DNA of 43,199 nucleotides from the IMG/VR virus record IMGVR_UViG_3300028902_000016; one strand, given 5' to 3'. The position numbers and the translations under genes were made by a program. The stretch is from a virus. Shown piece by piece: positions 5,361 through 42,398 of the stretch; the stretch's first letter is position 1, and every line of letters begins with the position of its first letter. Under the pieces are notes generated by a model, which was not told where the DNA came from, searched no databases, and worked only from the letters and a program-made list of their open reading frames with translations.

Positions 5361-8300
5361 TTAGGTGACCTGCTTGAAACTGGCTCCGTCGTCCACGGAT
5401 TCCCACTCGGTGACATCCGTCTCCCCGGATATCTTCCAAACCGCGATCCAGCGGCCTGGCCCTTGGTTGTCGTAGCTGACATGGAAGGTGTCTGGCTCGA
5501 ATTGCAAGTCCACCCCTTCCGATTTCACGTTGACGGCTGATGAGAAGCTCGAATCCCCAGGCCCGCGCCTGCGCATCTTGATCTTCCCCGGCCCCGACGT
5601 TCCCGAGTTGTAAACGAACCCGAACGCAAGGATCGTCCCGAGCGGATCGGTAGCGACCGTGGCGAAATAGGCGCTTGCGATCAGCAAGGTCTCGTCCCCC
5701 CACGTCTGCCCTTCGTCGAACGATGGGCGGTAGTAAAGCCCCGAGCCGGAGCGGATGTAGAAGAGGTATAGGACGTTTCGCGCGTCCTCGACGAGCCGTG
5801 GATGGGAGCAATCCGCCGACGCCGTAACCGTGCCATCCTTCTCAAAGCCTCCAAAGGGAGCCGAGAAGCTCGCCCGGTGGTGCCACACGTCGCCATCCTT
5901 GACGCTGACACGGTGGTACTGCCCGATCTTCGAGTGCAAGCACCACGGATTCCCAAAGCCTGGCTCTGTGACGATGCCGCCCACTCGATGCTGACGCCGT
6001 GGATACACGCCGGTCGAAACGCTTCCGATCGAGCTTCCGATGTGCGAAATGGTGAGACCTCGAAACGGCCTTGCCGGTGGAATCGTCTCGAAGTAGCCGA
6101 CGCTATCGCTAATCGCAGAACCGGCAGGAGCCCCGCCCGTCGTCTCACTGGCCACAAGCAAAGCCCCGCCCACTGGCTCGAAACTGGAGTTCCACACGAT
6201 CCCATGCGCTTGGCCCCTGAAGATGTGCGAGCAGTAGAGTTGCAGCTCTGCCGTGTAGTCATCATAGTTCAAGTCTGTGAACGGGTTGCCGATGCCTGGG
6301 TAGAACTGGATCAGATCGACGTAGAGCGTGGCCTGGAGCGTCTCCAGGCCCGAAAGCGTCATATTCGTGTAATCGACCCATGTGGTCCCGTTCCAGAGCC
6401 ATCCTCCGCCGCCTACTTCGGGAGCGACGATGTTCGTGTTGGTCCATGAGTCGAGAACGTTTGGCGAGAGCGCCGTCCAATTCCAGCCGAGGAACTTGTC
6501 GCCATCGGCCACGAAGTCTGCAATGGAGCGGGTGAGGTACGAGCCGAGATACTTGTAATTGGGCCAAAGCTCGAGACTCGTCCTGCCATCGGTGATCGCA
6601 ATGGCGCCGCGCTTCACGTCGAAGCCATCGGAGACGTAGCCGCTTACGAAGTCGGTCCTCAGATCGCTATTGAGAATCGTGAGCTTCTCGAAACTCTTGG
6701 TGAAGCCTTTCAGGTAATCCAGGTCGAGGACGTCCCCCGATCCAAGCCCGGATATCTCCATGGTGGAGATTCGGTTCACTCCCTGGTACTTGGCTTCGTT
6801 GGTCGGTTCGTCCGCCGAGACGCTCGCGCAAGGCCACCGATTGTCCCGGTGATCGCTTCCGGATCCCTGATCGACGTTCGGCAGCATCGTGTCGATTTCG
6901 ATGTCTGTCCACGTGTTTGCCGCCCCGGTGACGAAAGACCACTTCTTGCCCCCGTTGACCTTGAAGTACAGCGTCTTCGGCCCGGAATTCAGCTTCACCC
7001 TCAGCTTGAGGAACCGCTTGGTCTCTGTGTTGAGCTTGGGCGAGTAGGTTCTGGTAGCCGACGCCGACGATCCAGTCGCGGTGATCGTGACGGCAGTGCC
7101 GGAGCTTCCCAGCGTGGCGTTCGTGCCTGCCCAACCGGTCGTCGATCCGAAATCGTCGTGCGTGATCTCGCTGGCGGATTCCACCTCGATGATATCGACC
7201 ACCTTGGTGATGAAACTGGCCCTGTTATCGTTGGCGTCCTCTCCGAAGCTGCTGGCATGCGCCGCATCGAGCGAGCAATAGAATGGCGAGATTTGCGCCT
7301 GCTGATTGTAAACGGACGCCCTGGAGCCCGATGGACTTGAAACCGCCGAATGCGCGTTGACCTTCCTCTCTTGGAGCGTGAAGCTCTTCGAGAAGGCTCC
7401 CGCGGCATTGTAGAAGTAGTCGTCACTCTTCAGGTTCGTGAAGAAGCGAACGGCGTTCAGATACGGATCTGAGAACTGCTTGGCGACTCCGTTGATCCTG
7501 ACCTTGAGCGGAGGCGAGACTCGAACCGTCTGAGCGACCTGGCCTCGATTCGTATAGGTCGGAAATCCGAAGTCGTAGCGGCCCGCCCCTGAGTTGAAGC
7601 TCGGCTGCGAGTACACCCCTTCCCCGGTGAACTGGTAGGTGATACCCGCCGTCGTGTTGGTGACTTTGGACCAAACCAAATCGCCCGGGTCCACCGTTTC
7701 CCAGAACGCGACATCGCTGGAGACCTTGGCGGTTTCCGTGAAGATGCCGGCCCCGCCTTCCCAGGCTCCGGTGAGGATGTTGTAGACCTGGCCCGTGTGG
7801 GAGAAGGATGTCCAATTCGCGCAGACGACATTCTCGATCTTGGCCTGTAGCGGAATGCCTGAGATAACCGTTCCGAACGCATTGGCGCCCAGCGTCATAC
7901 CGTAATCGCTCGGCCCGAAGTACAGGATGCTCGCCGAGTCTGGATCGAGCGCGGAGAAGCTCCTGGAGCCCGTCGTCGATAGGCTACCGAGCGAGACGTC
8001 CCAGCGAAGATTGTTCGCGGCGTTGGCGAATCGCTCTTCGTAGATCAGGTACCGGCTTGGCCACTGAGGAGAGGCATCGAACGGATTCGGGATCGAAGTG
8101 GTCGAGACGTTGAAGCTCTTCCAGCGAAGCACCTCGATGACGTCCATCTCGATCGAGAAGGAACCGGTCTTTTCCTTGGACTCTTGGTAGCCCGTGCCGT
8201 ATTCCACGGACGAGCTGTTGTAGACGGTTGCAAGCAAGCCCGACGTGTTCAGAATCTCAACCTTCAGGCTAAGGGTGAACTTCGGCCTGTTGGTGACGAT

Positions 8301-25499: not shown

Positions 25500-25788
25500 T
25501 GGTTGTCTCGCGCCATCCTGCTTGCGCCTTCAGCCAGAAGATCGCTGCTGGAACGCTTGGCTCTGCTTTTGTTGCCTGCTTGAATAGCGACTCTGCGACC
25601 TTGGCATTGGCTTTGATCTTCCCTGTGTCGAGTTCCGTTCGGTAATGCTTACGGAGCGTCTTGGCAGTGATTCCGATCAATAGAGCGATGTCTTCTGCCG
25701 TCGCGCCATAGGCTGTCATTGCATCGACGGTCGCTCTTGTCTTTGCATCAGGCTGGTGTTCTGGTCGCGCCATTAGCTGCCTCGTCAA
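25378..25788 (-). CDS. Terminase small subunit candidate (HTH protein, 136 aa)
   Basis: Lies immediately upstream of TerL. HTH (EDIALLIGITAKTLRKHY) and an AAIFWLKAQAGWRE motif seen in small terminase-like proteins. The 122-nt overlap with TerL is unusually long. Confidence 0.55.
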   Translation of the reverse strand: MTRQLMARPEHQPDAKTRATVDAMTAYGATAEDIALLIGITAKTLRKHYRTELDTGKIKANAKVAESLFKQATKAEPSVPAAIFWLKAQAGWRETTNVQHSGKIEGSASEEERAARVVGILDAARERRSRDNSSNS

Positions 25789-27043
25789 ATGTAATGCCGT
25801 CGCGAATCCTGGTGGCTTGCTTGCCAGTGAAGTTCTGCCACCTGCGAATCGCCATGTCCACGTAAGCTGGGTTTAGCTCGATTGCAAAGCAAATCCTGCC
25901 AGTCATCTCTGCTGCGATGATCGTTGTGCCTGAACCGCTGAACGGCTCATAAACTGCTTGGCCTGGGCTGGAGTTGTTTTCAATCGGGCGCTTCATGCAC
26001 TCGACGGGTTTCTGGGTTGAGTGGCCTGTTTTTCCATCGTCCACATTCCCTTGCGTTCGGTGCATATTTGGGATTTGCCATACAGTTGACTGCTTTCTGT
26101 CGCCGCACCAATGCGCCGTTTTGCCTTTGCGCACGGCATACCAGCAAGGCTCATGCTGCATGTGATAGTGCCCTCTACCAATTACCAGCGAAGGCTTCAT
26201 CCAGATAACTTGCATCCTGCACTCGAACCCAGCTGCGTGCAATGAGCTAAGCACCTGGGCCGACAGCGGCCCAGGTGCGTGCCATACGTAGGCTACTTCT
26301 CCTGGAAAGAGTGACCATACCTCTCGCCAATCAGCCCGGTCGTCGTTTTCAACTTTCCCTTCAGCCCTCACCTGGTGCGCTTTATTAATGCCAGCCCGCA
26401 ATCGCCATCCGGCATCATATTCCACGCCATACGGAGGGTCCGTCACCATCAAGTGTGGCTTCACGCCAGCCAGGGCCTGCTCAACCGTTGCGGCATCCGT
26501 GCTGTCTCCGCAAGTAAGCCTATGATTGCCCAGCATCCATGTATCGCCAAGCTCGGAGACTGCCTTTTCCTCGAGTGCTGGGGTTTCGTCTGGATCTGTA
26601 AGGCCTTCCGACTTATCTGCAAGTAGCTCGATAATTTCGATCTGCCCAAAGCCCGTCAGCGCCAAATCGAATCCCAACTCTTGAAGGTCTTCGATTTCGA
26701 TTCTCAATAGATCGTCATCCCAGCCAGCGTTTAGCGCGAGCTTGTTGTCGGCGAGGATATAGGCCTTGCGTTGCGCGTCTGTGAGCCACGACACCTCGAT
26801 GCAGGGAACTTCGGCTCGCCCGAGCTTTTGGGCAGCTAGAACGCGACCGTGGCCGGCGACGATGCCCTTGTCGCCATCGATGATGACCGGGTTTATGAAG
26901 CCGAATTCTTTGATCGACGCCGCGATTTGGGCTATTTGCTCGGCGCTGTGGGTCCTAGCGTTTCGAGCATACGGAATCAACTCGTCGATGCTGACGCTTT
27001 TGTAAGACGGTAATAACTCGGCAGTCTTTCTCATGCAGAGCAT
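25748..27043 (-). CDS. ParB-like nuclease domain fused to an N6A/N4C DNA methyltransferase (431 aa)
   Basis: N-terminal ParB-like motif (ELIPYARNARTHSAEQI...GHGR). Catalytic TDPPYG, then the AdoMet motif EPFSGSGTT downstream (beta-class order). Confidence 0.8.
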   Translation of the reverse strand: MLCMRKTAELLPSYKSVSIDELIPYARNARTHSAEQIAQIAASIKEFGFINPVIIDGDKGIVAGHGRVLAAQKLGRAEVPCIEVSWLTDAQRKAYILADNKLALNAGWDDDLLRIEIEDLQELGFDLALTGFGQIEIIELLADKSEGLTDPDETPALEEKAVSELGDTWMLGNHRLTCGDSTDAATVEQALAGVKPHLMVTDPPYGVEYDAGWRLRAGINKAHQVRAEGKVENDDRADWREVWSLFPGEVAYVWHAPGPLSAQVLSSLHAAGFECRMQVIWMKPSLVIGRGHYHMQHEPCWYAVRKGKTAHWCGDRKQSTVWQIPNMHRTQGNVDDGKTGHSTQKPVECMKRPIENNSSPGQAVYEPFSGSGTTIIAAEMTGRICFAIELNPAYVDMAIRRWQNFTGKQATRIRDGITFDEAANGATRTPA

Positions 27044-28011: not shown

Positions 28012-28322
28012 TGTCGCTCCTTCCCCGAGAGCATCGTCTCGATGCGGATCACGGCCTCATGCGTGGCGTTAGCCTTGTCCTTGACTTCCTTTGTGTCGGA
28101 CTTGATCTCCATCACCGCGCTCTTGAGGTTCTGATCCTCCCTGGCAAGCGCGGCGAGCTTCATCTCCACGCGAAAGCCCCAGCCGATGGCGGCCATGACG
28201 TAGCCAATGACGAGAAAGGTCGCCTTCTCCATGTAGGAGTCAGGGACCGTGACGGCTGCAAGGAATAGGCTGAGCATTGTTTCATGTGGCACCCTTGGTG
28301 CAAACAAAGATCTAAGGAACAC
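28008..28322 (-). CDS. Membrane-anchored coiled-coil protein (holin or i-spanin-like, 104 aa)
   Basis: Hydrophobic N-terminal half, then a charged helical C-terminal half. Lies directly after the endolysin. An alternative start lies at 28277. Confidence 0.5.
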   Translation of the reverse strand: MFLRSLFAPRVPHETMLSLFLAAVTVPDSYMEKATFLVIGYVMAAIGWGFRVEMKLAALAREDQNLKSAVMEIKSDTKEVKDKANATHEAVIRIETMLSGKERQ

Positions 28323-28776
28323 TCAAAACGAAAACGCGGCATTTGCTTTGGTAGCCTTTGCCCGTCCATGGCCTGGAGCCGGGGCCGTGGCCACCGTAGG
28401 ACTCATAGGTTCGTCCATTCAAGATGAAACCCACGTGACGGCCGACGCCCTTGCCCGGCTGCTGTGGGAGCACGAAGATTCTCAGGATGCCGTCTTTCAG
28501 TAAGCCGTTTTCGACCGTGGATTCTTTGAAGTGGTTCTGAACCAGCCATTCGAGCTGCTTTGCTGAACCGTCTGGAATGACTTCCTTGCAGGCCTTGTGC
28601 ACGATGAGCCTGGTAAAGCCTGAGCAGTCGATCTCCTTCACGTCGGCGAGCTGCACGTCCAGAAATGGAGCTTTCGCGCCAAGAAGGTACTTGCAGTCCT
28701 TCATCTTGCCCGTGAGGGCAGGGATATCCTGCGGCTCGATCGGGAGCGTCTCAAATGGGAAATCGTTCTTCGGCAT
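28312..28776 (-). CDS. Endolysin, NlpC/P60-like cysteine peptidase (154 aa)
   Basis: IDCSGFTRL (catalytic Cys motif) and GRHVGFILNG (His motif) in the NlpC/P60 order. First gene after the long leader. Confidence 0.7.
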   Translation of the reverse strand: MPKNDFPFETLPIEPQDIPALTGKMKDCKYLLGAKAPFLDVQLADVKEIDCSGFTRLIVHKACKEVIPDGSAKQLEWLVQNHFKESTVENGLLKDGILRIFVLPQQPGKGVGRHVGFILNGRTYESYGGHGPGSRPWTGKGYQSKCRVFVLSVP

Positions 28777-28781
28777 GGCGT

Positions 28782-28816
28782 AAAAAGGGGCCCGGCAGGT
28801 GTCTGACTACCGGGCC
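28782..28816 (-). terminator. Intrinsic terminator T3, 5 nt upstream of the endolysin ATG
   Basis: Minus RNA is GGCCCGG(UAG)-ucagacac-(CUG)CCGGGCC, then CC-UUUUU-ACGCC-AUG. The 7-bp GC stem (28789-28795 / 28810-28816) is extendable by 3 more pairs. Confidence 0.65.
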
Positions 28817-29580
28817 TAGAGGTTTCTTATGCTTCCCTAGCTCGTTGGCTAAGCTGTGATGCCCGTTTGGACTAGCGGGTTGGTTTGCGCAACCACGGGC
28901 ACAGGTAGGTGGCCTTGGAGGTGATCCAAGATGGATGGCGGGTCATGGCAGGCATGCTCGTCGAAGCAGAGGCTCGCTCGCCGCCAAATTGCTAACTAAG
29001 GGCTCGCTATACGGCCTTGCCGCCCCGGTGGTACCAAGAGGTCGGGTCCCCTGCGGGGTCTCGACTTAGTGCCGATTCGCCATGTTTCAGGTTAGTTAGC
29101 AAATCTTTCGGGCACGTTTCGGTGGGTTCTCCGGCACATAACGCCTGCCGTTCGAACGACAGCACCGGAGTCGGCTCGGGTCCGATTGGGTACGTCCTTC
29201 CGACCTCGCGATGGCCCAAAACTTGTACGGGTCTAAGATAAATAAAGGGCTCAACTTGCGCTGAGCCCCGGAGAAGCCGTAGTACCCAGACTAGCCGGGG
29301 TTCGGACTCCATGTTTTAAGACGAACTCGCGCATCGAAAGGGCTCCAGCGTGTATATCAATTTGCTGTCTTTACCCATTTCGACTCCTGCGGGAAGGATG
29401 CGAAATGTTGCCGCATGTTTTTCCGTTCGTCCGTCCGAATGGGATGTGCGCGGCGGGACCGGAATAGCGGCAAAACGTAGTCGATCCCTGTACGGGTGGA
29501 AGCCCTGGGATCGTCGCGGAGTCCTTTGGTCGAACTGAAAAGCTGCCGTCCTTTCGGCCCAGCTAGGGGAGGACTCAAGC
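28817..29580 (-). ncRNA. Candidate structured non-coding RNA(s) / late-operon leader between T1 and T3
   Basis: No credible ORF. Bounded and bisected by terminators on the transcribed strand. Many local helices plus an 11-bp long-range pairing (28989-28999 with 29092-29102). No family identified by eye. Confidence 0.35.
29237..29268 (-). terminator. Intrinsic terminator T2
   Basis: Minus RNA is GGGCUCA-gcgcaagu-UGAGCCC followed by UUUAUUUAUCUU. Stem at 29247-29253 / 29262-29268. Confidence 0.7.
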
Positions 29581-29612
29581 GGAAATAGAAAAGCCCCTGC
29601 GATGGCAGAGGC
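29581..29612 (-). terminator. Intrinsic terminator T1 (end of the early-left operon)
   Basis: Minus RNA is GCCUCUGC-cauc-GCAGGGGC followed by UUUUCUAUUUCC. One position is a G-U pair on the minus strand but a C-A mismatch on the plus strand, which supports minus-strand function. Confidence 0.7.
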
Positions 29613-29703
29613 GAAAGTGGTTGAACCTAACTGCTTGCTATCTTCAGACGCAAGACTCCGTGGCCCACTAAAACGATTATACGCACAAAACCGCGAAAAG
29701 GTC

Positions 29704-29874
29704 TCATGATTTTGCAGCGATGTACTTGGCGAGCTTCTTCTCGTCGATCAGCCACAGCGTGGAGACCTTCACCGCGCCAACCTGACGACAGAAAACCTGA
29801 GAGCGGTTTAGTTTCACTCTCAGGTAATCAGGGGATATACCTAGACGCTTAGAGGCTTCAGACAGTGGGATCAT
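29704..29874 (-). CDS. Small Xis/MerR-type HTH protein (56 aa, absent from the track)
   Basis: Hand translation: MIPLSEASKRLGISPDYLRVKLNRSQVFCRQVGAVKVSTLWLIDEKKLAKYIAAKS. This is the pattern of excisionase-family HTH_17 domains. Overlaps the upstream gene end by 17 nt. The RBS is weak. Confidence 0.5.
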   Translation of the reverse strand: MIPLSEASKRLGISPDYLRVKLNRSQVFCRQVGAVKVSTLWLIDEKKLAKYIAAKS

Positions 29875-33617: not shown

Positions 33618-34067
33618 TCACGCCGCCCCCAGTACGAAGCGCCGACCGTATTCAGCGATTGCAAGCGCGTCGGCCATCCCGTCGTGTGGCTTTCGCCTTT
33701 CGACTCCAAGCCGCAAATCAACCTCGGCGAAATACTTCTGGCAGAACGATAGAACTTCGCCCTTCGTGGCCCCTTTGGGAAGTTTCCCGAGCATCTTCGA
33801 CTGCCACTTGTTTGGCGTGACGGTTTCGACCTTGCACATCATGCAAAGACAGCACCCGAGGATCATGCCGTAGCTGAACGGTGTCGAGAATCGCCCGGCT
33901 TGGTGCTCGATGACCACCAGATCCGGCTTGTGCTCAAGAAGGATCGACCTCAACTCGTGGATATCGACATCTTTGCCAAGCATCGGTAGCGGGATGGCGT
34001 TCGTAACCTCTTCGCTTACAAAGGCGATGCCTCCCTTTAGGCCGGGGTCTATGCCGATGACGGTCAC
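33618..34067 (-). CDS. RuvC-like Holliday junction resolvase (149 aa, GTG start)
   Basis: VIGIDPGLKGGIAFV (first catalytic Asp), VVIEHQ (Glu) and DGMADALAIAEYG (C-terminal Asp pair), in the RuvC order. Confidence 0.75.
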   Translation of the reverse strand: MTVIGIDPGLKGGIAFVSEEVTNAIPLPMLGKDVDIHELRSILLEHKPDLVVIEHQAGRFSTPFSYGMILGCCLCMMCKVETVTPNKWQSKMLGKLPKGATKGEVLSFCQKYFAEVDLRLGVERRKPHDGMADALAIAEYGRRFVLGAA

Positions 34068-34219
34068 TTCTCCCCCTCAAACAGCCCCTTCGTCTTGGGC
34101 TGCGCTTCGTTGAGCTTCTCCTGCCAGAACTTGCGTTGGGCTTCGCACTTGGATTCGTTCAGCTTGCGTTGGTAGAACGCGATGGCTTTGTCGCGGGACA
34201 GGCGTGGGTAGTCCTTCAA
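34064..34219 (-). CDS. Small basic helical protein (51 aa, TTG start, absent from the track)
   Basis: Hand translation: (M)KDYPRLSRDKAIAFYQRKLNESKCEAQRKFWQEKLNEAQPKTKGLFEGEK. TTGA overlap with the upstream stop and GTGA overlap with the RuvC start. It replaces the junk-like track ORF 34077..34277. Confidence 0.4.
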   Translation of the reverse strand: MKDYPRLSRDKAIAFYQRKLNESKCEAQRKFWQEKLNEAQPKTKGLFEGEK

Positions 34220-34452
34220 TTGGGCCTCTCGTTGTAAGCCCCACAGATTCTAGGAGCGCATGTAAGGTTCCGCTCATCTAATCTCCACTTATCAGGGAAC
34301 TCAGCAAGGGGAACATTGACCTTCTTGCGAGTCGATGGGTGGTAGAGCGTCACGCCCGGATTCTTCCAATCGCCGCATTGCTCCCAAACGAACATGCGAC
34401 GCTTTCCGTCCGTAACGTAATCGCCAGCGTTGAGGACAACTAACTCCGGCAT
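34216..34452 (-). CDS. Hypothetical protein (78 aa)
   Basis: ORF in operon order. Confidence 0.5.
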   Translation of the reverse strand: MPELVVLNAGDYVTDGKRRMFVWEQCGDWKNPGVTLYHPSTRKKVNVPLAEFPDKWRLDERNLTCAPRICGAYNERPN

Positions 34453-34667
34453 CGTAAGTCCCTCTCGGGTGGAATCCCGTTCGCAAATAGCCTTGCCGCA
34501 ACTTCGAGCCTTGAATTAACTCCGAAGATCGTCCGCAAGTTGGCGACGTGGAAGTGAACCGTGCGTTCAGACACGCTCAACTTCCGAGCGATCATCTTGT
34601 CCGAGAGTCCCTCCATGAGCAGGAGGGATATCTCTCGTTGGCGGGGTGTGAGGTAAATCTTCGACAC
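34440..34667 (-). CDS. LuxR/GerE-type HTH regulator, DNA-binding domain only (75 aa)
   Basis: LTPRQREISLLLMEGLSDKMIARKLSVSERTVHFHVANLRTIFGVNSRLEVA is a textbook GerE-type HTH. Confidence 0.8.
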   Translation of the reverse strand: MSKIYLTPRQREISLLLMEGLSDKMIARKLSVSERTVHFHVANLRTIFGVNSRLEVAARLFANGIPPERDLRCRS

Positions 34668-35290: not shown

Positions 35291-35572
35291 CTATTGGCCT
35301 TGGTCTTGCTGGGGTACGCTCTGTGAGGCACCCTGTGGTGTCGGCGAAGCAAGCCCCTGCGACTCGTGAGGTCCGGGGGCATTTTCTTTCAGGTAGCGAT
35401 TGATGGCTATCAAAGCGCCTTGCCGGGACATTCCGTAACGGCTCGCTAACTGGCTCCGATTTGTCGATCTGGGCCACTGCTCAGCAAGGGCCGCTATGTC
35501 ATCCGCGTCTAGCTTGCGTGGTCTCCCTGTTTGGTTTGTGGTCACACAGCAATCATAACAGATTTTTGTCAT
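35291..35572 (-). CDS. Cro-like early HTH protein (93 aa)
   Basis: First gene divergent from the repressor. GRPRKLDADDIAALAE...NRSQLASRYGMSRQGALIAINRYL resembles the HTH_7/resolvase-type helix-turn-helix. Confidence 0.6.
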   Translation of the reverse strand: MTKICYDCCVTTNQTGRPRKLDADDIAALAEQWPRSTNRSQLASRYGMSRQGALIAINRYLKENAPGPHESQGLASPTPQGASQSVPQQDQGQ

Positions 35573-35619
35573 TCGACAATAATCTGGCGCAAAATCTATT
35601 GTATATTTTTTGTCACGCT
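35573..35619. promoter_or_regulatory. Divergent switch region between the Cro-like gene and cI (operators/promoters)
   Basis: Only 47 nt. Contains TTTTTGTCA copies (35563-35571 and 35606-35616), the inverted repeat ACAATA/TATTGT (35576-81 / 35597-602), and overlapping -10-like hexamers: TATATT (plus, 35602-35607) and TACAAT (minus, 35598-35603). Confidence 0.6.
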
Positions 35620-36279
35620 ATGTTCGCAATGGCAGTCGATCCACGAGCAGAGGCGATAGATCAGTTGATGAAAGAGGCAAGCATTACCTTTCGGGAGCTT
35701 GCCGCAAAGTCAGGGATAGACAATTGGCAAAACATCAGAAATTGGATCAACGGAACTTCGCCCCGGAAAGAGTCTGAAATTCAGGCGGCGCTCAATGCCG
35801 CCCAAGAGATTGCGAAATCGCGACCTAAGAGGCTCGGTCCTATGCCAATGGGACCAATCAGAATCGTCGGCAACGTGGCCGCCGGGGACGGTACCTATAA
35901 CGTGGATTCAGAACATGAGATTTTGTTGGTTCCTCTGTCGCTCACAGGGGAAGATCGGCTTGGATGGATGGTCGAGGGTGACTCCATGATGCCAAGCCTT
36001 GAACCTGGTGATGTGGTGGTCTTCAAGGAATATCGTCAGCCCAGGGGCAAACTTGCCTACCTCGCCAAGATGCCCAATGGTTCCCTTGTCTGCAAGCAGA
36101 TCAAATGGAACAACTCAACGAGCCAATGGGAACTTCACTCGATTAACCCACGATACGATCCGATCCCGATGGATGGCATTGAGTTGCTTGGCTACATGGT
36201 CGGTTACTACCGTGTTCGAGGACTTCATGAGAAGTTCGAAAGCGACCCGGATGGACTCCAGCTAGAAATATTTTCATAA
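35620..36279 (+). CDS. CI-type repressor (HTH + S24/LexA-like autopeptidase, 219 aa)
   Basis: N-terminal HTH (ITFRELAAKSGIDNWQNIRNWINGTS). C-terminal VEGDSMMPSLEPGDVVVF...LVCKQIKW (Ser/Lys dyad). The start is set at ATG 35620, because the track extension to 35461 overlaps the divergent gene. Confidence 0.85.
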   Translation: MFAMAVDPRAEAIDQLMKEASITFRELAAKSGIDNWQNIRNWINGTSPRKESEIQAALNAAQEIAKSRPKRLGPMPMGPIRIVGNVAAGDGTYNVDSEHEILLVPLSLTGEDRLGWMVEGDSMMPSLEPGDVVVFKEYRQPRGKLAYLAKMPNGSLVCKQIKWNNSTSQWELHSINPRYDPIPMDGIELLGYMVGYYRVRGLHEKFESDPDGLQLEIFS

Positions 36280-36565: not shown

Positions 36566-36966
36566 TGGGAGTCCGCATCTTGACCGACGGTGATAACGCC
36601 GTCCTTTATTGCTCGACATCCGATTGGGCTTTTGGTCCTGTGTTCTCGGCAGACACCCACGGACGCGACGCCGCTTACATGGCTCAGCGGTTCCTTGATT
36701 GGTTGGCTCCAGACCCGCGGGAGATCGGCGACGAACTGCTTGCCAACAAGTACGTCCAGTTCCTCGACTGGTCTGAGAACCACTTCACCAAGAAGGACTA
36801 CGACGAGGGCTTGGAAACTCCCCTTTGCCTCAAGTCCAGAGCCTATGACCTTATGGCGGAAGAACCCATCGACACGGACGACTACCGCGACCGGGAATGG
36901 GAGTACATCGAGTCGATTCTCGAAGATGAACCCTGGGAGATCAAACAGAAGGAGGTGGCGGCATGA
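36565..36966 (+). CDS. Hypothetical protein (133 aa)
   Basis: Start at ATG 36565, with a TAATG overlap with the upstream stop. Confidence 0.55.
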   Translation: MGVRILTDGDNAVLYCSTSDWAFGPVFSADTHGRDAAYMAQRFLDWLAPDPREIGDELLANKYVQFLDWSENHFTKKDYDEGLETPLCLKSRAYDLMAEEPIDTDDYRDREWEYIESILEDEPWEIKQKEVAA

Positions 36967-37208
36967 AGCTCTCCCGCGCCCTCTTCGACAGACCCAATTC
37001 CGACAAGGACCCGCTCGGCTATGGGCACAACGAACACTGGACCGAGGCGACACGCTACGGCATGGCTCCGACCATGGCAGAGCGACGCCGCAAGATCAAG
37101 ACAGAGGTCTGGGTAGTCGTCTTTGTCCTTCTATTCACCATCGGATTCGCCCTCGTGCTCGAACAGGCAAGGGCAGAGGCAAAGTTTCAAAAGGAGATCA
37201 CGCGATGA
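36963..37208 (+). CDS. Small membrane protein (81 aa)
   Basis: ATGA overlap. TM helix VWVVVFVLLFTIGFALVL. Confidence 0.55.
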   Translation: MKLSRALFDRPNSDKDPLGYGHNEHWTEATRYGMAPTMAERRRKIKTEVWVVVFVLLFTIGFALVLEQARAEAKFQKEITR

Positions 37209-38176
37209 GCGCCGCCCCATTGATCGACGATAGGCAGGCTTGGCTTGAAGCCAGACGAAATTGCATCACAGCGACCGATGTCGCAGCGATCGCCGGCCTT
37301 CACCCATACAAGACGCCACACGACGTTTATCTGGAGAAGACAGGCCAGAAGGGAGAGATTGAGCCGAATGCAGCGATGCAGACGGGTACCGATCTTGAGC
37401 CGTTCATTGCCGCGGTCTACCGACAACGGTTTAACGTCGAAACTGTCCGGGCTGACTTTGTGACTCACCCGAGCCATCCCCAGTTAGGATGCACTCCCGA
37501 CTTCTACATCGGCAGCGACACCGTTCTCGAGATCAAGTGGTGCGGGATCCATGCCGCTCAGAACTTCGGCGACGAAGGGACCGACGATATTCCCGCTCAC
37601 TACCTTTGCCAAGTGAACTGGCAGTGCTTTGTGACGGGCCGATCGAAGTGGGTTCTCTACGTCCTTGGCCCGTGGGGGTTCCGAGAGTACAAGGGCAAGC
37701 ACAACGAGGAGTTCACCCGAAGGCTTTCATTCCAGGCTTTGAAGTTCTGGGGAGAGTACATCGAGAGCGAGAACCCGCCGCCGCTGTCTGGCCATGCGCC
37801 CGATTCCGCATGGGTCAATCAGAAGAATCCGCTCGACGACGGTTCGATCATCCAAGCAACAGACCTGATCGAAGACGAAGTAGCAGAACTCGGCAACGAG
37901 CTGCAATCGCTCGACGAACTGGCCCAAGTCATCGAGGGTCGGAAGAACCGCATCAAGGACTTCATGGGCGAGGCATCGATCCTCAAGACGGCAAGCGGCA
38001 ACTTTACTTGGAAGAAGCCGAAGGACCGCGAGACGACTGATTGGAAAGCGGTCGCGATGGAACTTGCCTCTTTGATCAACGAGCCGAAGTATCTCGACTC
38101 AGCGATCGCTGACCACACCACGACCAAAGAAGGGACGCGAGTATTCAGAACGCCCTTCACTTCAAGCAAAGCATAA
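37205..38176 (+). CDS. YqaJ-like recombination exonuclease (PD-(D/E)XK, 323 aa)
   Basis: The internal ATG at 37205 (ATGA overlap) gives MSAAPLIDDRQAWLEARRNCITATDVAAIAGLHPYKTPHDVYLEKTG, the YqaJ N-terminal signature. It is paired with RecT downstream. The 205-aa N-terminal extension in the track ORF is spurious. Confidence 0.8.
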   Translation: MSAAPLIDDRQAWLEARRNCITATDVAAIAGLHPYKTPHDVYLEKTGQKGEIEPNAAMQTGTDLEPFIAAVYRQRFNVETVRADFVTHPSHPQLGCTPDFYIGSDTVLEIKWCGIHAAQNFGDEGTDDIPAHYLCQVNWQCFVTGRSKWVLYVLGPWGFREYKGKHNEEFTRRLSFQALKFWGEYIESENPPPLSGHAPDSAWVNQKNPLDDGSIIQATDLIEDEVAELGNELQSLDELAQVIEGRKNRIKDFMGEASILKTASGNFTWKKPKDRETTDWKAVAMELASLINEPKYLDSAIADHTTTKEGTRVFRTPFTSSKA

Positions 38177-38187
38177 GGAGTTTATTC

Positions 38188-39018
38188 ATGTCAGAAACCA
38201 CACCCGCAAAGATCAACGGCAGTCTGCCAGCATCCAACATCAAAGACTTCGGCGCCTTCCTCAAATCGAGGATGCCGAGTATCAAGAGCGTTGCCGCTTC
38301 CCACATGCGACCGGATCGCGTGTACCGACTCTTGGTGGCATCGGTCAGCAAAACGCCTGCGCTCCAGAAGTGCACGATGGAGAGCATTTTCCGATCGGGA
38401 CTCCAGGCGGTTGAGCTTGGACTCGAACCAGGATCGGCAGTCGGTGAGGGCTACCTTGTCCCCTACGGCAACCAATGCACCTTTATCCCTGGCTACCGTG
38501 GGTTGATTTCGCTCGCCTTTCGATCGGGCCACGTCCTGAGCGTCAAGGCGCAAGTCGTCTTTCAGGGAGACAAGTTCGAGTATGAGGAAGGGCTAGAGCC
38601 TAAACTCAAGCACGTTCCGAACTTCGAGGGAACCAGAGACGTAGCCCAAATCACCTATGCCTACTGCATCGTGAAGCTTGAGGGCGGCGGCGTCATTTAC
38701 GACGTGATGACCAGGACCGAGATCGACAATATCCGCAAGCGATCGAAGGCAAGCGGATCGGGTCCATGGGTGACGGACTTCGCAGAGATGGCAAAGAAGA
38801 CGGTCACTCGTCGCTGCCTCAAATACGCTCCGATGTCGGTTGAGATGTCGAAGGCGCTTGCGCTCGACAACGCACTTGAGGACAGCCCCAACAACGTGAT
38901 CGAAGCCGAGTTCGAATCGCTTGAGATGGACGAGTCAGAGCCAGAGACGGTATCCAAGTCGGACAAGCTGACGGAACGGATCGGCAAGGCGCCCGAGACT
39001 CAGGAAACACTTGTATGA
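38188..39018 (+). CDS. recT: RecT-family single-strand annealing protein (276 aa)
   Basis: GYLVPYGNQCTFIPGYRGLISLAFRSGHV and the acidic C-terminus are typical of RecT. Adjacent to the exonuclease gene. Confidence 0.8.
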   Translation: MSETTPAKINGSLPASNIKDFGAFLKSRMPSIKSVAASHMRPDRVYRLLVASVSKTPALQKCTMESIFRSGLQAVELGLEPGSAVGEGYLVPYGNQCTFIPGYRGLISLAFRSGHVLSVKAQVVFQGDKFEYEEGLEPKLKHVPNFEGTRDVAQITYAYCIVKLEGGGVIYDVMTRTEIDNIRKRSKASGSGPWVTDFAEMAKKTVTRRCLKYAPMSVEMSKALALDNALEDSPNNVIEAEFESLEMDESEPETVSKSDKLTERIGKAPETQETLV

Positions 39019-41188: not shown

Positions 41189-41446
41189 ATGAATGAATCT
41201 TCGCTTGTCTCGCAGGATTGGGTTGAAGAATTCCTTGGCACCGACAGGAAAGGCGTCATGGCCCTGATTCGGCGCGGCAAGCTGCATCGTCACCCATTGA
41301 CGGGGGCATTCCTGAGAGACGAGGTTCTAGCCGTCCACAACGAAATTCAAACGGAGTTAAGATATGTTCGTGAAACCACGGTGGGACGACAAGAACAAGA
41401 GATGGGAATGCAGCACGGGTTCAGGACAAAGCCGACGCTGGTTTAG
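41189..41446 (+). CDS. xis: Excisionase-like HTH protein (85 aa)
   Basis: Lies immediately upstream of and overlapping the integrase gene. EFLGTDRKGVMALIRRGKLHRHPLTGAFLRDEV fits the HTH_17/Xis pattern. Confidence 0.55.
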   Translation: MNESSLVSQDWVEEFLGTDRKGVMALIRRGKLHRHPLTGAFLRDEVLAVHNEIQTELRYVRETTVGRQEQEMGMQHGFRTKPTLV

Positions 41447-42398
41447 ATGCAAAGTCGAGGGAGAAGAGGGGAAGAGGATCTGCGCCGAGAAGCAAAGAGC
41501 CTACTTGGAAGGACCCGCTCCATTGCTTCCGGGCTGTCTGGGTGAATTTGTCGAGACCGTCTGGTGGCCCCGAATCAAATCATCCTGCACCCTTGAAACC
41601 AGGCGCATGTACAAGGGACTCCTGGACAAGCACCTCAGTGTGTTCTATCACCGTCAATTGGATGACATCAGGCTGGAAGATTTGCAGCCGTGGGTCATGG
41701 GGATCGAACTCAGCGCGAAGTCGGTTCACAACATCTTCGGGGTGATGTCGGGAATATTGGAGCTTGCTCACAAGGTCGGACGCTACTCAAGAAAGGATCA
41801 TAGGCTCGTCGTCTTGCCTGAGATCGTGAAGCAGCAACGACAGGCGATAGACATCGACAAGGTGAAGAAGATTATTGAGGCGAGCAAGGGAAGTGCGTTG
41901 GAGGGTCCTATTTGGACAGCCGCATACCTTGGACTCAGACGCAACGAGGTCTGCGGTCTGAAAGTTCCGCACATAGAATTGGGGGAGGGGGCCAGGGTCA
42001 GCGTTCAGGACAACCGCCAAGCATGCGGCGAAACCCAGAAGCTCAAAAGCAAGCCGACCGGCCAATCGAGGGTCCTCCATCTGCCGAGATGGATGGGTGA
42101 GAAGCTGTTATCGTTCAAATCGCCCGATTCGATCTACCTCTTCATCGCGGATGGCAAACCGATTCACCCGAAGAGGATAACGGTCGGCATGGAGAGGATC
42201 TGCGAAGCGGCGGGAGTGGAGAGAATGAGGTTTCACGATCTGAGACATGCCTGCCGGTCCAACTTATCGGCTGCCGGAGTTCCCGAGGTTGTGATTATGC
42301 AGATTCTCGGACACACCGACTACCAAGCGAGCCTTGGATACCAAGGAGAGCAAGCAGGAAGACAAATGGACGCTTTTAATAGACTGGCGTCCCTATGA
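41364..42398 (+). CDS. int: Tyrosine integrase (344 aa)
   Basis: C-terminal catalytic pattern: GLRRNEV (Arg), RFHDLRHACRS (H-x-x-R), ILGHTDYQASLGY (His...Tyr). Lies next to the tRNA-like att site. Confidence 0.85.
   Translation: MFVKPRWDDKNKRWECSTGSGQSRRWFRCKVEGEEGKRICAEKQRAYLEGPAPLLPGCLGEFVETVWWPRIKSSCTLETRRMYKGLLDKHLSVFYHRQLDDIRLEDLQPWVMGIELSAKSVHNIFGVMSGILELAHKVGRYSRKDHRLVVLPEIVKQQRQAIDIDKVKKIIEASKGSALEGPIWTAAYLGLRRNEVCGLKVPHIELGEGARVSVQDNRQACGETQKLKSKPTGQSRVLHLPRWMGEKLLSFKSPDSIYLFIADGKPIHPKRITVGMERICEAAGVERMRFHDLRHACRSNLSAAGVPEVVIMQILGHTDYQASLGYQGEQAGRQMDAFNRLASL

Follow-up and report, generated by a model that had tools for sequence, protein, structure and literature searches.

What is the function of the 927 nucleotides (nt) that separate the last early gene from the first late gene in IMG/VR virus record IMGVR_UViG_3300028902_000016, a stretch of 43,199 nt that is referred to here as the window? 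This gap runs on the minus strand from the TGA of the early gene (29704-29706) to the ATG of an endolysin gene (28774-28776). An earlier note on the same DNA had described it as free of open reading frames (ORFs), dense in hairpins and equipped with three tandem terminators, and had offered two readings, a late leader that needs antitermination or discrete structured RNAs of the GOLLD/ROOL class. Our analysis inclines us, on balance, to a form of the first: the gap would be the regulatory leader of the late (lysis, packaging and structural) operon of a lambda-like temperate phage, and would work as a processive antitermination switch. Judged by comparison between related loci, it seems to follow a conserved design, in which a promoter-like site, a terminator, a structured leader and a terminator at the first late gene succeed one another, in a manner that matches the logic of lambda PR'/tR'.

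Two mosaic lineages carry the comparison, each module being compared over 2 or 3 sequences. The L002-type lineage comprises IMG/VR contigs, a contig of a metagenome-assembled genome (MAG) and JGI contigs (L001-L014 and L024-L026), which are identical in the leader region; the L030-type lineage comprises the Logan contigs L030, L032 and L033. Samples that contain these phages include JGI 3300028841, 3300028842 and 3300024274 and the SRR140923xx runs. More distant relatives of the endolysin, with 55-77% identity, are found in L015, L020, L021, L027 and L028, where the gaps are short. A blastn search of the region against 50,697 phage records returned no match. The two mosaic relatives share modules with the window and differ from it by compensatory changes.

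A gap without genes

The claim that no gene lies in the gap is borne out by the coordinates and by the coding tests. Its ORFs are short and overlap one another on both strands; their codon-usage log-likelihoods, from a model trained on 23 window genes, are all negative (-0.08 to -0.26 per codon), against a mean of +0.25 for genuine genes (minimum about 0) and of -0.33 for off-frame readings, and none of them has a Pfam or PHROG match. The ORF of 62 amino acids (aa) that overlaps Block A, one of the elements listed below, was searched as a protein, in case related ORFs had been called in error, and had no relative among 1.84 billion proteins. The scan for tRNA and tmRNA genes found none. Among the ORF-free stretches examined in the window the gap is the largest, and two apparent rivals are not empty. 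In 34064-34667 (minus strand), three small ORFs of 51, 78 and 75 aa follow in tandem, each stop overlapping the next start; the gene of an S24-type repressor occupies 35461-36279.

The fold of the whole gap is not unusually stable (z = -1.5 for the minus strand and -0.9 for the plus strand), and the label "hairpin-dense" is therefore unsupported by energy alone. The individual helices named in the earlier note do pair as described (7, 7, 11 and 6 bp, plus a hairpin with a GAAA tetraloop, CCGAAAGG); by a rough estimate, chance alone would give helices of 7 bp in a stretch of 927 nt, but not one of 11 bp. The elements of the gap, in the direction of transcription, are the following.

29676-29681, minus strand: perfect TATAAT -10-like element, 22 nt after the early stop codon, with a start predicted near 29669
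29581-29612, minus strand: predicted intrinsic terminator T1, 8-bp stem GCCUCUGC/GCAGGGGC (29593-29612), then UUUUCUAUUU
29515-29581, minus strand: P1 domain, starting right after the T1 U-tract, with helices P1a (29579-29581/29515-29517) and P1b (29570-29576/29519-29525)
29482-29513, minus strand: P2 hairpin CGAUCCC/GGGAUCG, with the 3' half of its loop, CCGUACA, conserved; 80% identity to L030 over 56 nt
29404-29479, minus strand: Block A (P3), closing helix GCCGC (29467-29471)/GCGGC (29410-29414)
29237-29269, minus strand: predicted intrinsic terminator T2, 10 pairs by scan (29269-29246), GGGGCUCAGC/GUUGAGCCCU plus UUAUUUAU
28989-29102, minus strand: 11-bp perfect inverted repeat UUGCUAACUAA/UUAGUUAGCAA, enclosing 92 nt and ending at the start of Block B
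28777-28991, minus strand: Block B, conserved structured module with a 5' hairpin (28936-28986), hairpins at 28876-28897 and 28836-28853, and T3
28782-28816, minus strand: predicted intrinsic terminator T3, 10-bp stem (28789-28816) and CCUUUUU, 5 nt short of the endolysin ATG

Terminators and a promoter-like site

On comparative grounds, T3 appears to be the best-supported single element of the gap. A hairpin of this type with a U-run, followed 10-20 nt on by the first late ATG, is found in seven lineages (the window, L002, L020, L021, L027, L028 and L030). Its core, CCCGG/CCGGG, is invariant across the seven, and the pair next to the core covaries (G-C, A-U, A-U, C-G, C-G, G-C and G-C). L015 has a weaker CCCAG/CUGGG hairpin at the same place, with a non-standard flanking pair and no clear U-run. 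The space between T3 and the gene is too short to hold a promoter, and transcription of the late genes must therefore pass the T3 hairpin.

A consensus scan of the whole window, with shuffles as control, recovered all three of the proposed minus-strand terminators (8, 10 and 10 pairs for T1, T2 and T3, respectively). Terminator-like sites as such are no more frequent in the window than in the shuffles; only four sites have at least 6 G-C pairs, three of which are T1, T2 and T3; the remaining one, at 30558-30527 within an ORF, is not followed by a U-run. Positional counterparts of T1 exist in L002 (a 10-bp stem and UUUUCC, found by eye and folded) and in L030 (a 13-bp stem), and in both the window and L030 the T1 U-tract runs straight into P1. 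T2 occurs in the window only and has no comparative support. The same is true of the 6-bp helix proposed as its anti-terminator, which is present, and of the 11-bp long-range helix, which pairs perfectly and exceeds what the rough estimate allows to chance. A 10-mer, CCCGSUAGUC, occurs three times on the minus strand with at most 1 mismatch, 5' of T2 (29289-29298), in the centre of Block B (28870-28879) and in the 5' arm of T3 (28805-28814), which may be chance; GCTAGTC / CTAG...GTCC was rejected as a recurring leader motif, since it is not enriched.

The 43-kb window contains four TATAAT sequences, two of them on the minus strand, and one of these two lies between the early stop codon and T1. 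At the same place L002 has a TTTGCA-17-TATAGT promoter detected by the scan, with an upstream TG (extended -10), and then its 10-bp terminator hairpin. L030 has a TTGCAT...CATCAT that is promoter-like by eye, where the scan found no promoter-like site, and its 13-bp terminator comes next. Elements resembling a -10 are also present upstream of the endolysin gene in L015 and L020 (TGCATAAT) and in L017 (TATAAT). The L017 element (630-646) ends 6 nt before the endolysin ATG and would give a leaderless mRNA, unlike the long leaders of the window, L002 and L030. Downstream of T1 there is no room for a promoter, and downstream of T2 no convincing one was found.

Conserved RNA modules

Blocks A and B appear, from the pattern of their changes, to be non-coding elements under purifying selection. 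Between the window and L002, Block A is identical at 66 of 71 positions (29474-29404; 92-93%), including an invariant stretch of 33 nt (GGACGGACGAACGGAAAAACAUGCGGCAACAUU), and Block B at 183 of 208 (85-88%). The neutral reference, the four-fold degenerate sites of the four lysis genes that both share, is identical at 89 of 173 (51%), giving Fisher p values of 8e-11 for Block A and 2e-15 for Block B. A recent conversion tract confined to the blocks is unlikely, because Block B is contiguous with the endolysin gene. The gap as a protein-coding or decayed gene is not supported: the mismatches in Block B fall evenly on the three positions (8/8/9 by position modulo 3), the insertions and deletions (indels) of 1, 2, 1, 3 and 1 nt shift the frame, and the codon scores are negative. 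The codon-periodic conservation that would have pointed to such a gene was not seen in Block B.

In Block B, RNAalifold predicts 49 pairs, of which 4 are compensatory and 0 broken between window and L002, and only 2 of 300 column shuffles reach 4 compensatory pairs. Block A alone has no significant covariation; its closing helix recurs in the window, L002 and L030, around an interior of 52 nt in the first two and of about 115 different nt in L030. Read by eye, Block A gave no convincing match to a sigma-70, sigma-54 or extracytoplasmic function (ECF) promoter. A long-range pairing between Blocks A and B was rejected, as none is conserved, and so was an 11-nt complement (29561-29571/28832-28842), which by eye is unconserved in L002 or L030.

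For P1 and P2 the informative relative is L030. The window from 29647 to 29436 is collinear with L030 1915-2145 (local alignment z = 7.7), and the core at 29519-29466 is 80% identical (E = 9e-7). All 17 pairs of P1 and P2 are formed in both sequences, with 3 double changes and 2 single changes that preserve a wobble pair, while slid controls gave 26-47% pairing and 0 double changes. P1b reads GAGUCCU/AGGACUC in the window and GCACUCU/AGGGUGC in L030, which amounts to 3 compensatory pairs and one change from C-G to U.G; the P1 extension CGC/GCG is invariant, and P2 is CGGUCCC/GGGAUCG in L030 (A-U to G.U). This covariation makes the two 7-bp helices (29519-29525/29570-29576 and 29482-29488/29507-29513) the best-supported of those listed in the earlier note. 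Independent minimum-free-energy folds of the window and L030 give the same order of elements, namely P1 as a long-range helix that encloses small hairpins (in the window among them CCGAAAGG at 29550-29557), P2, and P3 closed by GCCGC/GCGGC. Both single changes give G.U and would be A.C on the other strand, which points to the minus-strand RNA. The assignment of the strand rests on these changes, on the U-tracts and on gene orientation; folding energy does not discriminate, the plus strand folding as well or better.

No described family accounts for these modules. The whole window has 0 Rfam matches at the gathering threshold, and a search of the gap and of the L030 and L002 leaders with Rfam 15 at E <= 10, in which the presence of put and EAR models was not verified, gave chance matches only; the GOLLD, ROOL and riboswitch models match neither the window nor either relative. 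A covariance model of P1/P2 matched only its own two sequences among all collected loci. Exact-pattern scans for the Block A, Block B and P2 motifs in viral and genome sequences and, reached via proteins, in metagenome sequences returned the same L002-type contigs or nothing. A second copy of any block was not found elsewhere in the window, which makes a pair of the nutL/nutR or putL/putR type unlikely.

Mosaic relatives

These phages are highly mosaic. The window and L002 share only Block A, Block B and the lysis cassette (74-76% DNA identity; endolysins 88% identical), and the 5 kb of early genes upstream are unrelated, even as proteins. The middle 413 nt of the gap (29404-28991), which hold T2 and the 11-bp repeat, are confined to the window; L002 has about 129 unrelated nt instead, and no T2. 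L030 shares with the window DnaB (89% aa identity) and the holin (90% aa identity), and has a different, CHAP-type endolysin preceded by an ECF-type sigma gene. Its gap measures 456 nt, of which about 290 form the leader between the 13-bp terminator and a T3-like hairpin; the site that is promoter-like by eye precedes the terminator, and the hairpin, with its U-run, abuts the sigma gene's ATG. Block B is absent from L030, as P1 and P2 are from L002. The independent exchange of modules between lineages argues against one large conserved fold of the GOLLD/ROOL kind.

Genes for ECF-type sigma factors (Sigma70_r2) stand beside the lysis genes at L030 2295-2840, L028 350-847 and L019 2964-3620, and in L030 the sigma gene is the first after the T3-like terminator. 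This suggests a sigma cascade for the late genes of the relatives that bear such a factor. Between the T3 homologue and the endolysin, L002 has an extra ORF of 86 aa with one hydrophobic segment (5736-5996). The 8-mer ACGCCATG lies on either side of this ORF and is single in the window, at the endolysin start, so that the difference looks like a gene-cassette indel by microhomology. L005 has, at 130-170, a sequence resembling the 3' half of a tRNA (T-arm GGGGTTCGATTCCCC and acceptor strand), and a 55%-identical endolysin follows about 150 nt downstream of it. ARAGORN called no tRNA at L005 130-170, and the sequence may be a remnant of an attachment site or a prophage end.

Genome layout and host

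The layout of the window is that of a lambda-like temperate phage, with late genes co-directional with the early operon (minus strand). Its main landmarks are the following.

41364-42398: tyrosine integrase
36590-39018: YqaJ/RecT recombination genes
35461-36279, plus strand: S24 (LexA/CI-type) repressor gene, overlapping the start region of the minus-strand early operon
about 35572 to 29704, minus strand: early operon, including DnaB
29704-29874, minus strand: last early gene, a 56-aa helix-turn-helix (HTH) protein with weak excisionase/HTH_17 similarity
28312-28776, minus strand: first late gene, NlpC/P60-like (C40) endolysin of 154 aa

The endolysin is followed by a 62-aa holin-like protein, and then by the ParB-methylase, the terminase and the structural genes. 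The ParB-methylase, a ParB N-terminal domain fused to an N6/N4 DNA methylase, is encoded between the lysis cassette and the terminase region (25748-27043, minus strand). Promoter-like sites on both strands cluster at 35552-35602, the head of the early operon, which the S24 repressor gene overlaps, and this arrangement is probably the immunity switch. From the order of repressor, early and late genes, the gap sits where lambda has Q-PR'-tR'.

The endolysin of the closest relative is annotated in a MAG of the Fimbriimonadaceae (Armatimonadota), in which the contig could be a mis-binned phage; the host is probably a bacterium of this group. Matches to cultured phages are limited to distant ones for the terminase (about 36% identity), and the endolysin has none.

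How the late genes may be switched on

Under the antitermination reading that we favour, transcripts from the early operon or from the TATAAT site (29681-29676) would be stopped at T1, and leakage would be stopped at T2 and T3. Given the 5 nt between T3 and the endolysin start codon, the late genes would be made only by a polymerase that passes the terminators. The switch would then most likely be a processive antitermination activity made or loaded in lytic growth, possibly a Q/AlpA-type protein loaded at the promoter or an N-type factor from the early operon. P1, P2 and Block A, just after T1, and Block B, which ends in T3, would be cis-acting parts of the leader RNA under purifying selection, and our best guess is that they may help a modified polymerase, or the 5' end of the mRNA, through T3 into the lysis genes. 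Of the two readings first offered, the late leader fits best with the layout, the -10 element, the conserved and covarying T3 and the precedent of AlpA; the part of it that found no counterpart in the data is the antitermination apparatus, as no antiterminator protein, binding element or pause site was identified.

Several observations weigh against this reading. Searches of Pfam, PHROGs, NCBIfam and PDB sequences with the four proteins encoded upstream of the gap (56, 101, 196 and 144 aa) brought up neither Q nor AlpA nor any other antiterminator, and the 144-aa protein has only three homologues and an unusable AlphaFold model (predicted local distance difference test score, pLDDT, 45). In the relatives, the leader is preceded by the gene of a Cys-rich protein of 105 aa (L002) or of a 186-aa protein (L030). 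Q and AlpA consist of an N-terminal ring plus a C-terminal HTH (PMC9371919), for which the adjacent HTH protein, with only 56 aa, is too small. The idea that AlpA is a small HTH protein to which the 56-aa gene might correspond was dropped, because the published AlpA is larger and Q-like (PMC7969949, PMC9371919). The TATAAT of the window has no good -35 and was not called by the promoter scan, and no -10-like pause element (TAnnnT-type, +1 to +25) was seen by eye in 29675-29630, although this consensus may not be that of the host. Since T1 comes before the modules, its readthrough cannot be due to them. Each module is present in only 2-3 lineages, which makes the covariation statistics thin; the identity of domain 1 to L030 (65-72%) is not significantly greater than that of four-fold sites (59%), and folding energies single out neither the region nor a strand.

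It is conceivable, though doubtful, that P1-P2-Block A and Block B represent a new class of modular cis-acting leader RNA in temperate phages of Armatimonadota-type hosts. The RNA itself would confer terminator resistance or sense a signal, gating the lysis/late operon; it would be the equivalent, for these phages, of put or conAn2, and would pass from phage to phage along with the lysis cassette.

The main rival explanation, which we regard as unlikely, is RNA-based processive antitermination, with T1 serving as a leaky terminator or insulator of the early operon and the modules, on the nascent transcript, protecting the polymerase at T2, T3 and later terminators, either alone, as put and EAR do, or with a small phage protein, as in conAn2-ConAn1. 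The modules are indeed conserved, structured, on the transcribed strand and upstream of T3 and of the whole late operon, and they move along with the lysis cassette between phages whose early genes differ fully, as expected of a cis-acting element that is independent of a protein. No antiterminator protein is recognisable, and conAn2, a large RNA within an intergenic region of 383 bp, is of comparable size (PMC8191782). However, known RNA antiterminators directly follow their promoter with no terminator ahead, whereas here T1 precedes and abuts P1, and the piecemeal swapping of modules, Block B being absent from L030 and P1/P2 from L002, would be unexpected for one obligatory fold. The lack of an Rfam match also counts against it, bearing in mind that the put and EAR models were not verified in that database.

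In some lambdoid phages, terminated late-leader transcripts act on targets. One or more discrete, stable non-coding RNAs acting in trans on host or phage targets, be it the transcript of about 87 nt from the promoter to T1, an RNA processed from the leader with its end at T3, or both, would be an improbable account of the gap. In both the window and L002, the promoter-like site and first terminator would yield an RNA of about 80-90 nt with a 5' stem-loop and a terminator, and Block B ends in a proper terminator and appears to be under purifying selection. The promoter-to-T1 RNAs of the window, L002 and L030 are, however, unconserved in sequence, that of L030 being only about 45 nt long. There is no promoter room between T1 and P1 and no conserved promoter upstream of Block A or Block B, homology beginning at the first helix, and no Rfam family matches. 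What stands of the second reading first offered is that P1, P2 and Blocks A and B are conserved structured RNA; their assignment to discrete GOLLD/ROOL-class RNAs is unsupported, in view of the Rfam result and of the lack of promoter room after T1.

Quite improbable, in our view, is a sensor-type attenuator (a riboswitch or protein-binding leader), in which Block B would read a metabolite, a second messenger or a phage or host protein and T3 would be the expression platform. A conserved structured domain that has changed less than the coding DNA beside it, with an intrinsic terminator directly after it at the regulated start codon, is what such a device would show. But no conserved anti-terminator pairing with the 5' arm of T3 was found, the best by eye being 5 bp; the leaders that share T3 (L020, L021, L015, L027, L028 and L030) have no recognisable similarity to Block B, and no Rfam riboswitch matches. 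Very improbable is a gap without specific function, be it the scar of a recombination, a gene in decay or filler that separates two mosaic modules and forms hairpins by chance: the mosaicism of the phages, the window-only middle 413 nt and the unremarkable folding z-score speak for it, but for the conserved blocks it is disfavoured by a conservation far above that of the four-fold sites of adjacent genes, by the even spread of mismatches (8/8/9), the indels (1, 2, 1, 3 and 1 nt) and the negative codon scores, and by the compensatory changes in helices.

Comparison with known systems

The timing of late genes by antitermination is textbook knowledge for coliphage lambda, where the late switch consists of the Q antiterminator, PR', a short terminated 6S transcript and tR' upstream of the S-R-Rz lysis genes. 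The gap resembles it in that the last early gene lies on one side and the lysis cassette on the other, and the genome likewise encodes a CI-like repressor and has an early operon for replication that runs in the direction of the late one. A further likeness is a promoter-like -10 with a strong predicted intrinsic terminator within about 60 nt, such that the late genes would be reached only via terminator readthrough. It differs in that neither a protein of the Q family nor a Q-binding element or a -10-like pause element was recognised, in having three terminators instead of one, the last of which abuts the start codon, in the approximately 700 nt of partly conserved structured RNA between the first and the last terminator, and in its host, probably one of the Armatimonadota.

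In the alpBCDE and PA0807-0829 operons controlled by AlpA in P. aeruginosa, a promoter and then an intrinsic terminator lie directly upstream of the lysis operon; the terminators of PA0807 start at +26 and +247, both before the first ORF, and tB is located upstream of the alpB lysis genes (PMC7969949). The two-terminator layout of PA0807 matches the pattern from T1 to T3, and in both cases a regulator gene, or a candidate for one, adjoins the target. AlpA is, however, a Q-like protein with a ring and a C-terminal HTH and with DNA contacts around 128-142 (PMC9371919), while the product of the gene next to the gap has only 56 aa. Neither a pause element nor an AlpA-binding element (GGGACG) was identified here, and the AlpA leaders have no described conserved structured RNA.

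The conAn system of Gram-positive conjugative plasmids (PMC8191782) also has a non-coding RNA region of several hundred nt near the start of a long operon with internal terminators, with the gene of a small protein directly upstream, and some ConAn1 homologues carry an HTH. Its sequence is likewise poorly conserved between systems. In contrast to the modules described here, conAn2 has no terminator upstream, and it is found on conjugative elements of Firmicutes and not on phages.

The put elements of HK022 and the EAR of Bacillus are folded leader elements of the nascent RNA which pass the polymerase through downstream terminators and need no specific terminator sequence. The put RNA has about 70 nt, forms two stem-loops and directly follows the promoter. 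Both put and EAR are much smaller than conAn2 (PMC8191782). The modules of the gap, of 70-215 nt each, lie after T1 and precede only T2 and T3; P1 starts after the T1 U-tract, so that the RNA is not upstream of every terminator that would have to be suppressed. With GOLLD and ROOL the gap shares that it is a large non-coding stretch of a phage which cannot be assigned by eye, but no covariance model matched the window or its relatives even at E <= 10.

To our knowledge, late-gene antitermination is almost unexplored outside Proteobacteria and Firmicutes. The locus displays an apparent late logic of the lambda type in phages assigned to a Fimbriimonadaceae (Armatimonadota) MAG, with a T3-type terminator in at least seven lineages, and several of its modules, which no known family matches, have diverged less than the genes beside them. 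If these modules act in antitermination or sensing, they would constitute a new RNA-based mechanism of lysis control; if they do neither, they still make up a defined and testable set of conserved non-coding phage elements. Taken together, the architecture of the switch is a known one, and what is new is the host group, the conserved terminator at the first late gene and the modular, selected structured RNAs that belong to no described family.

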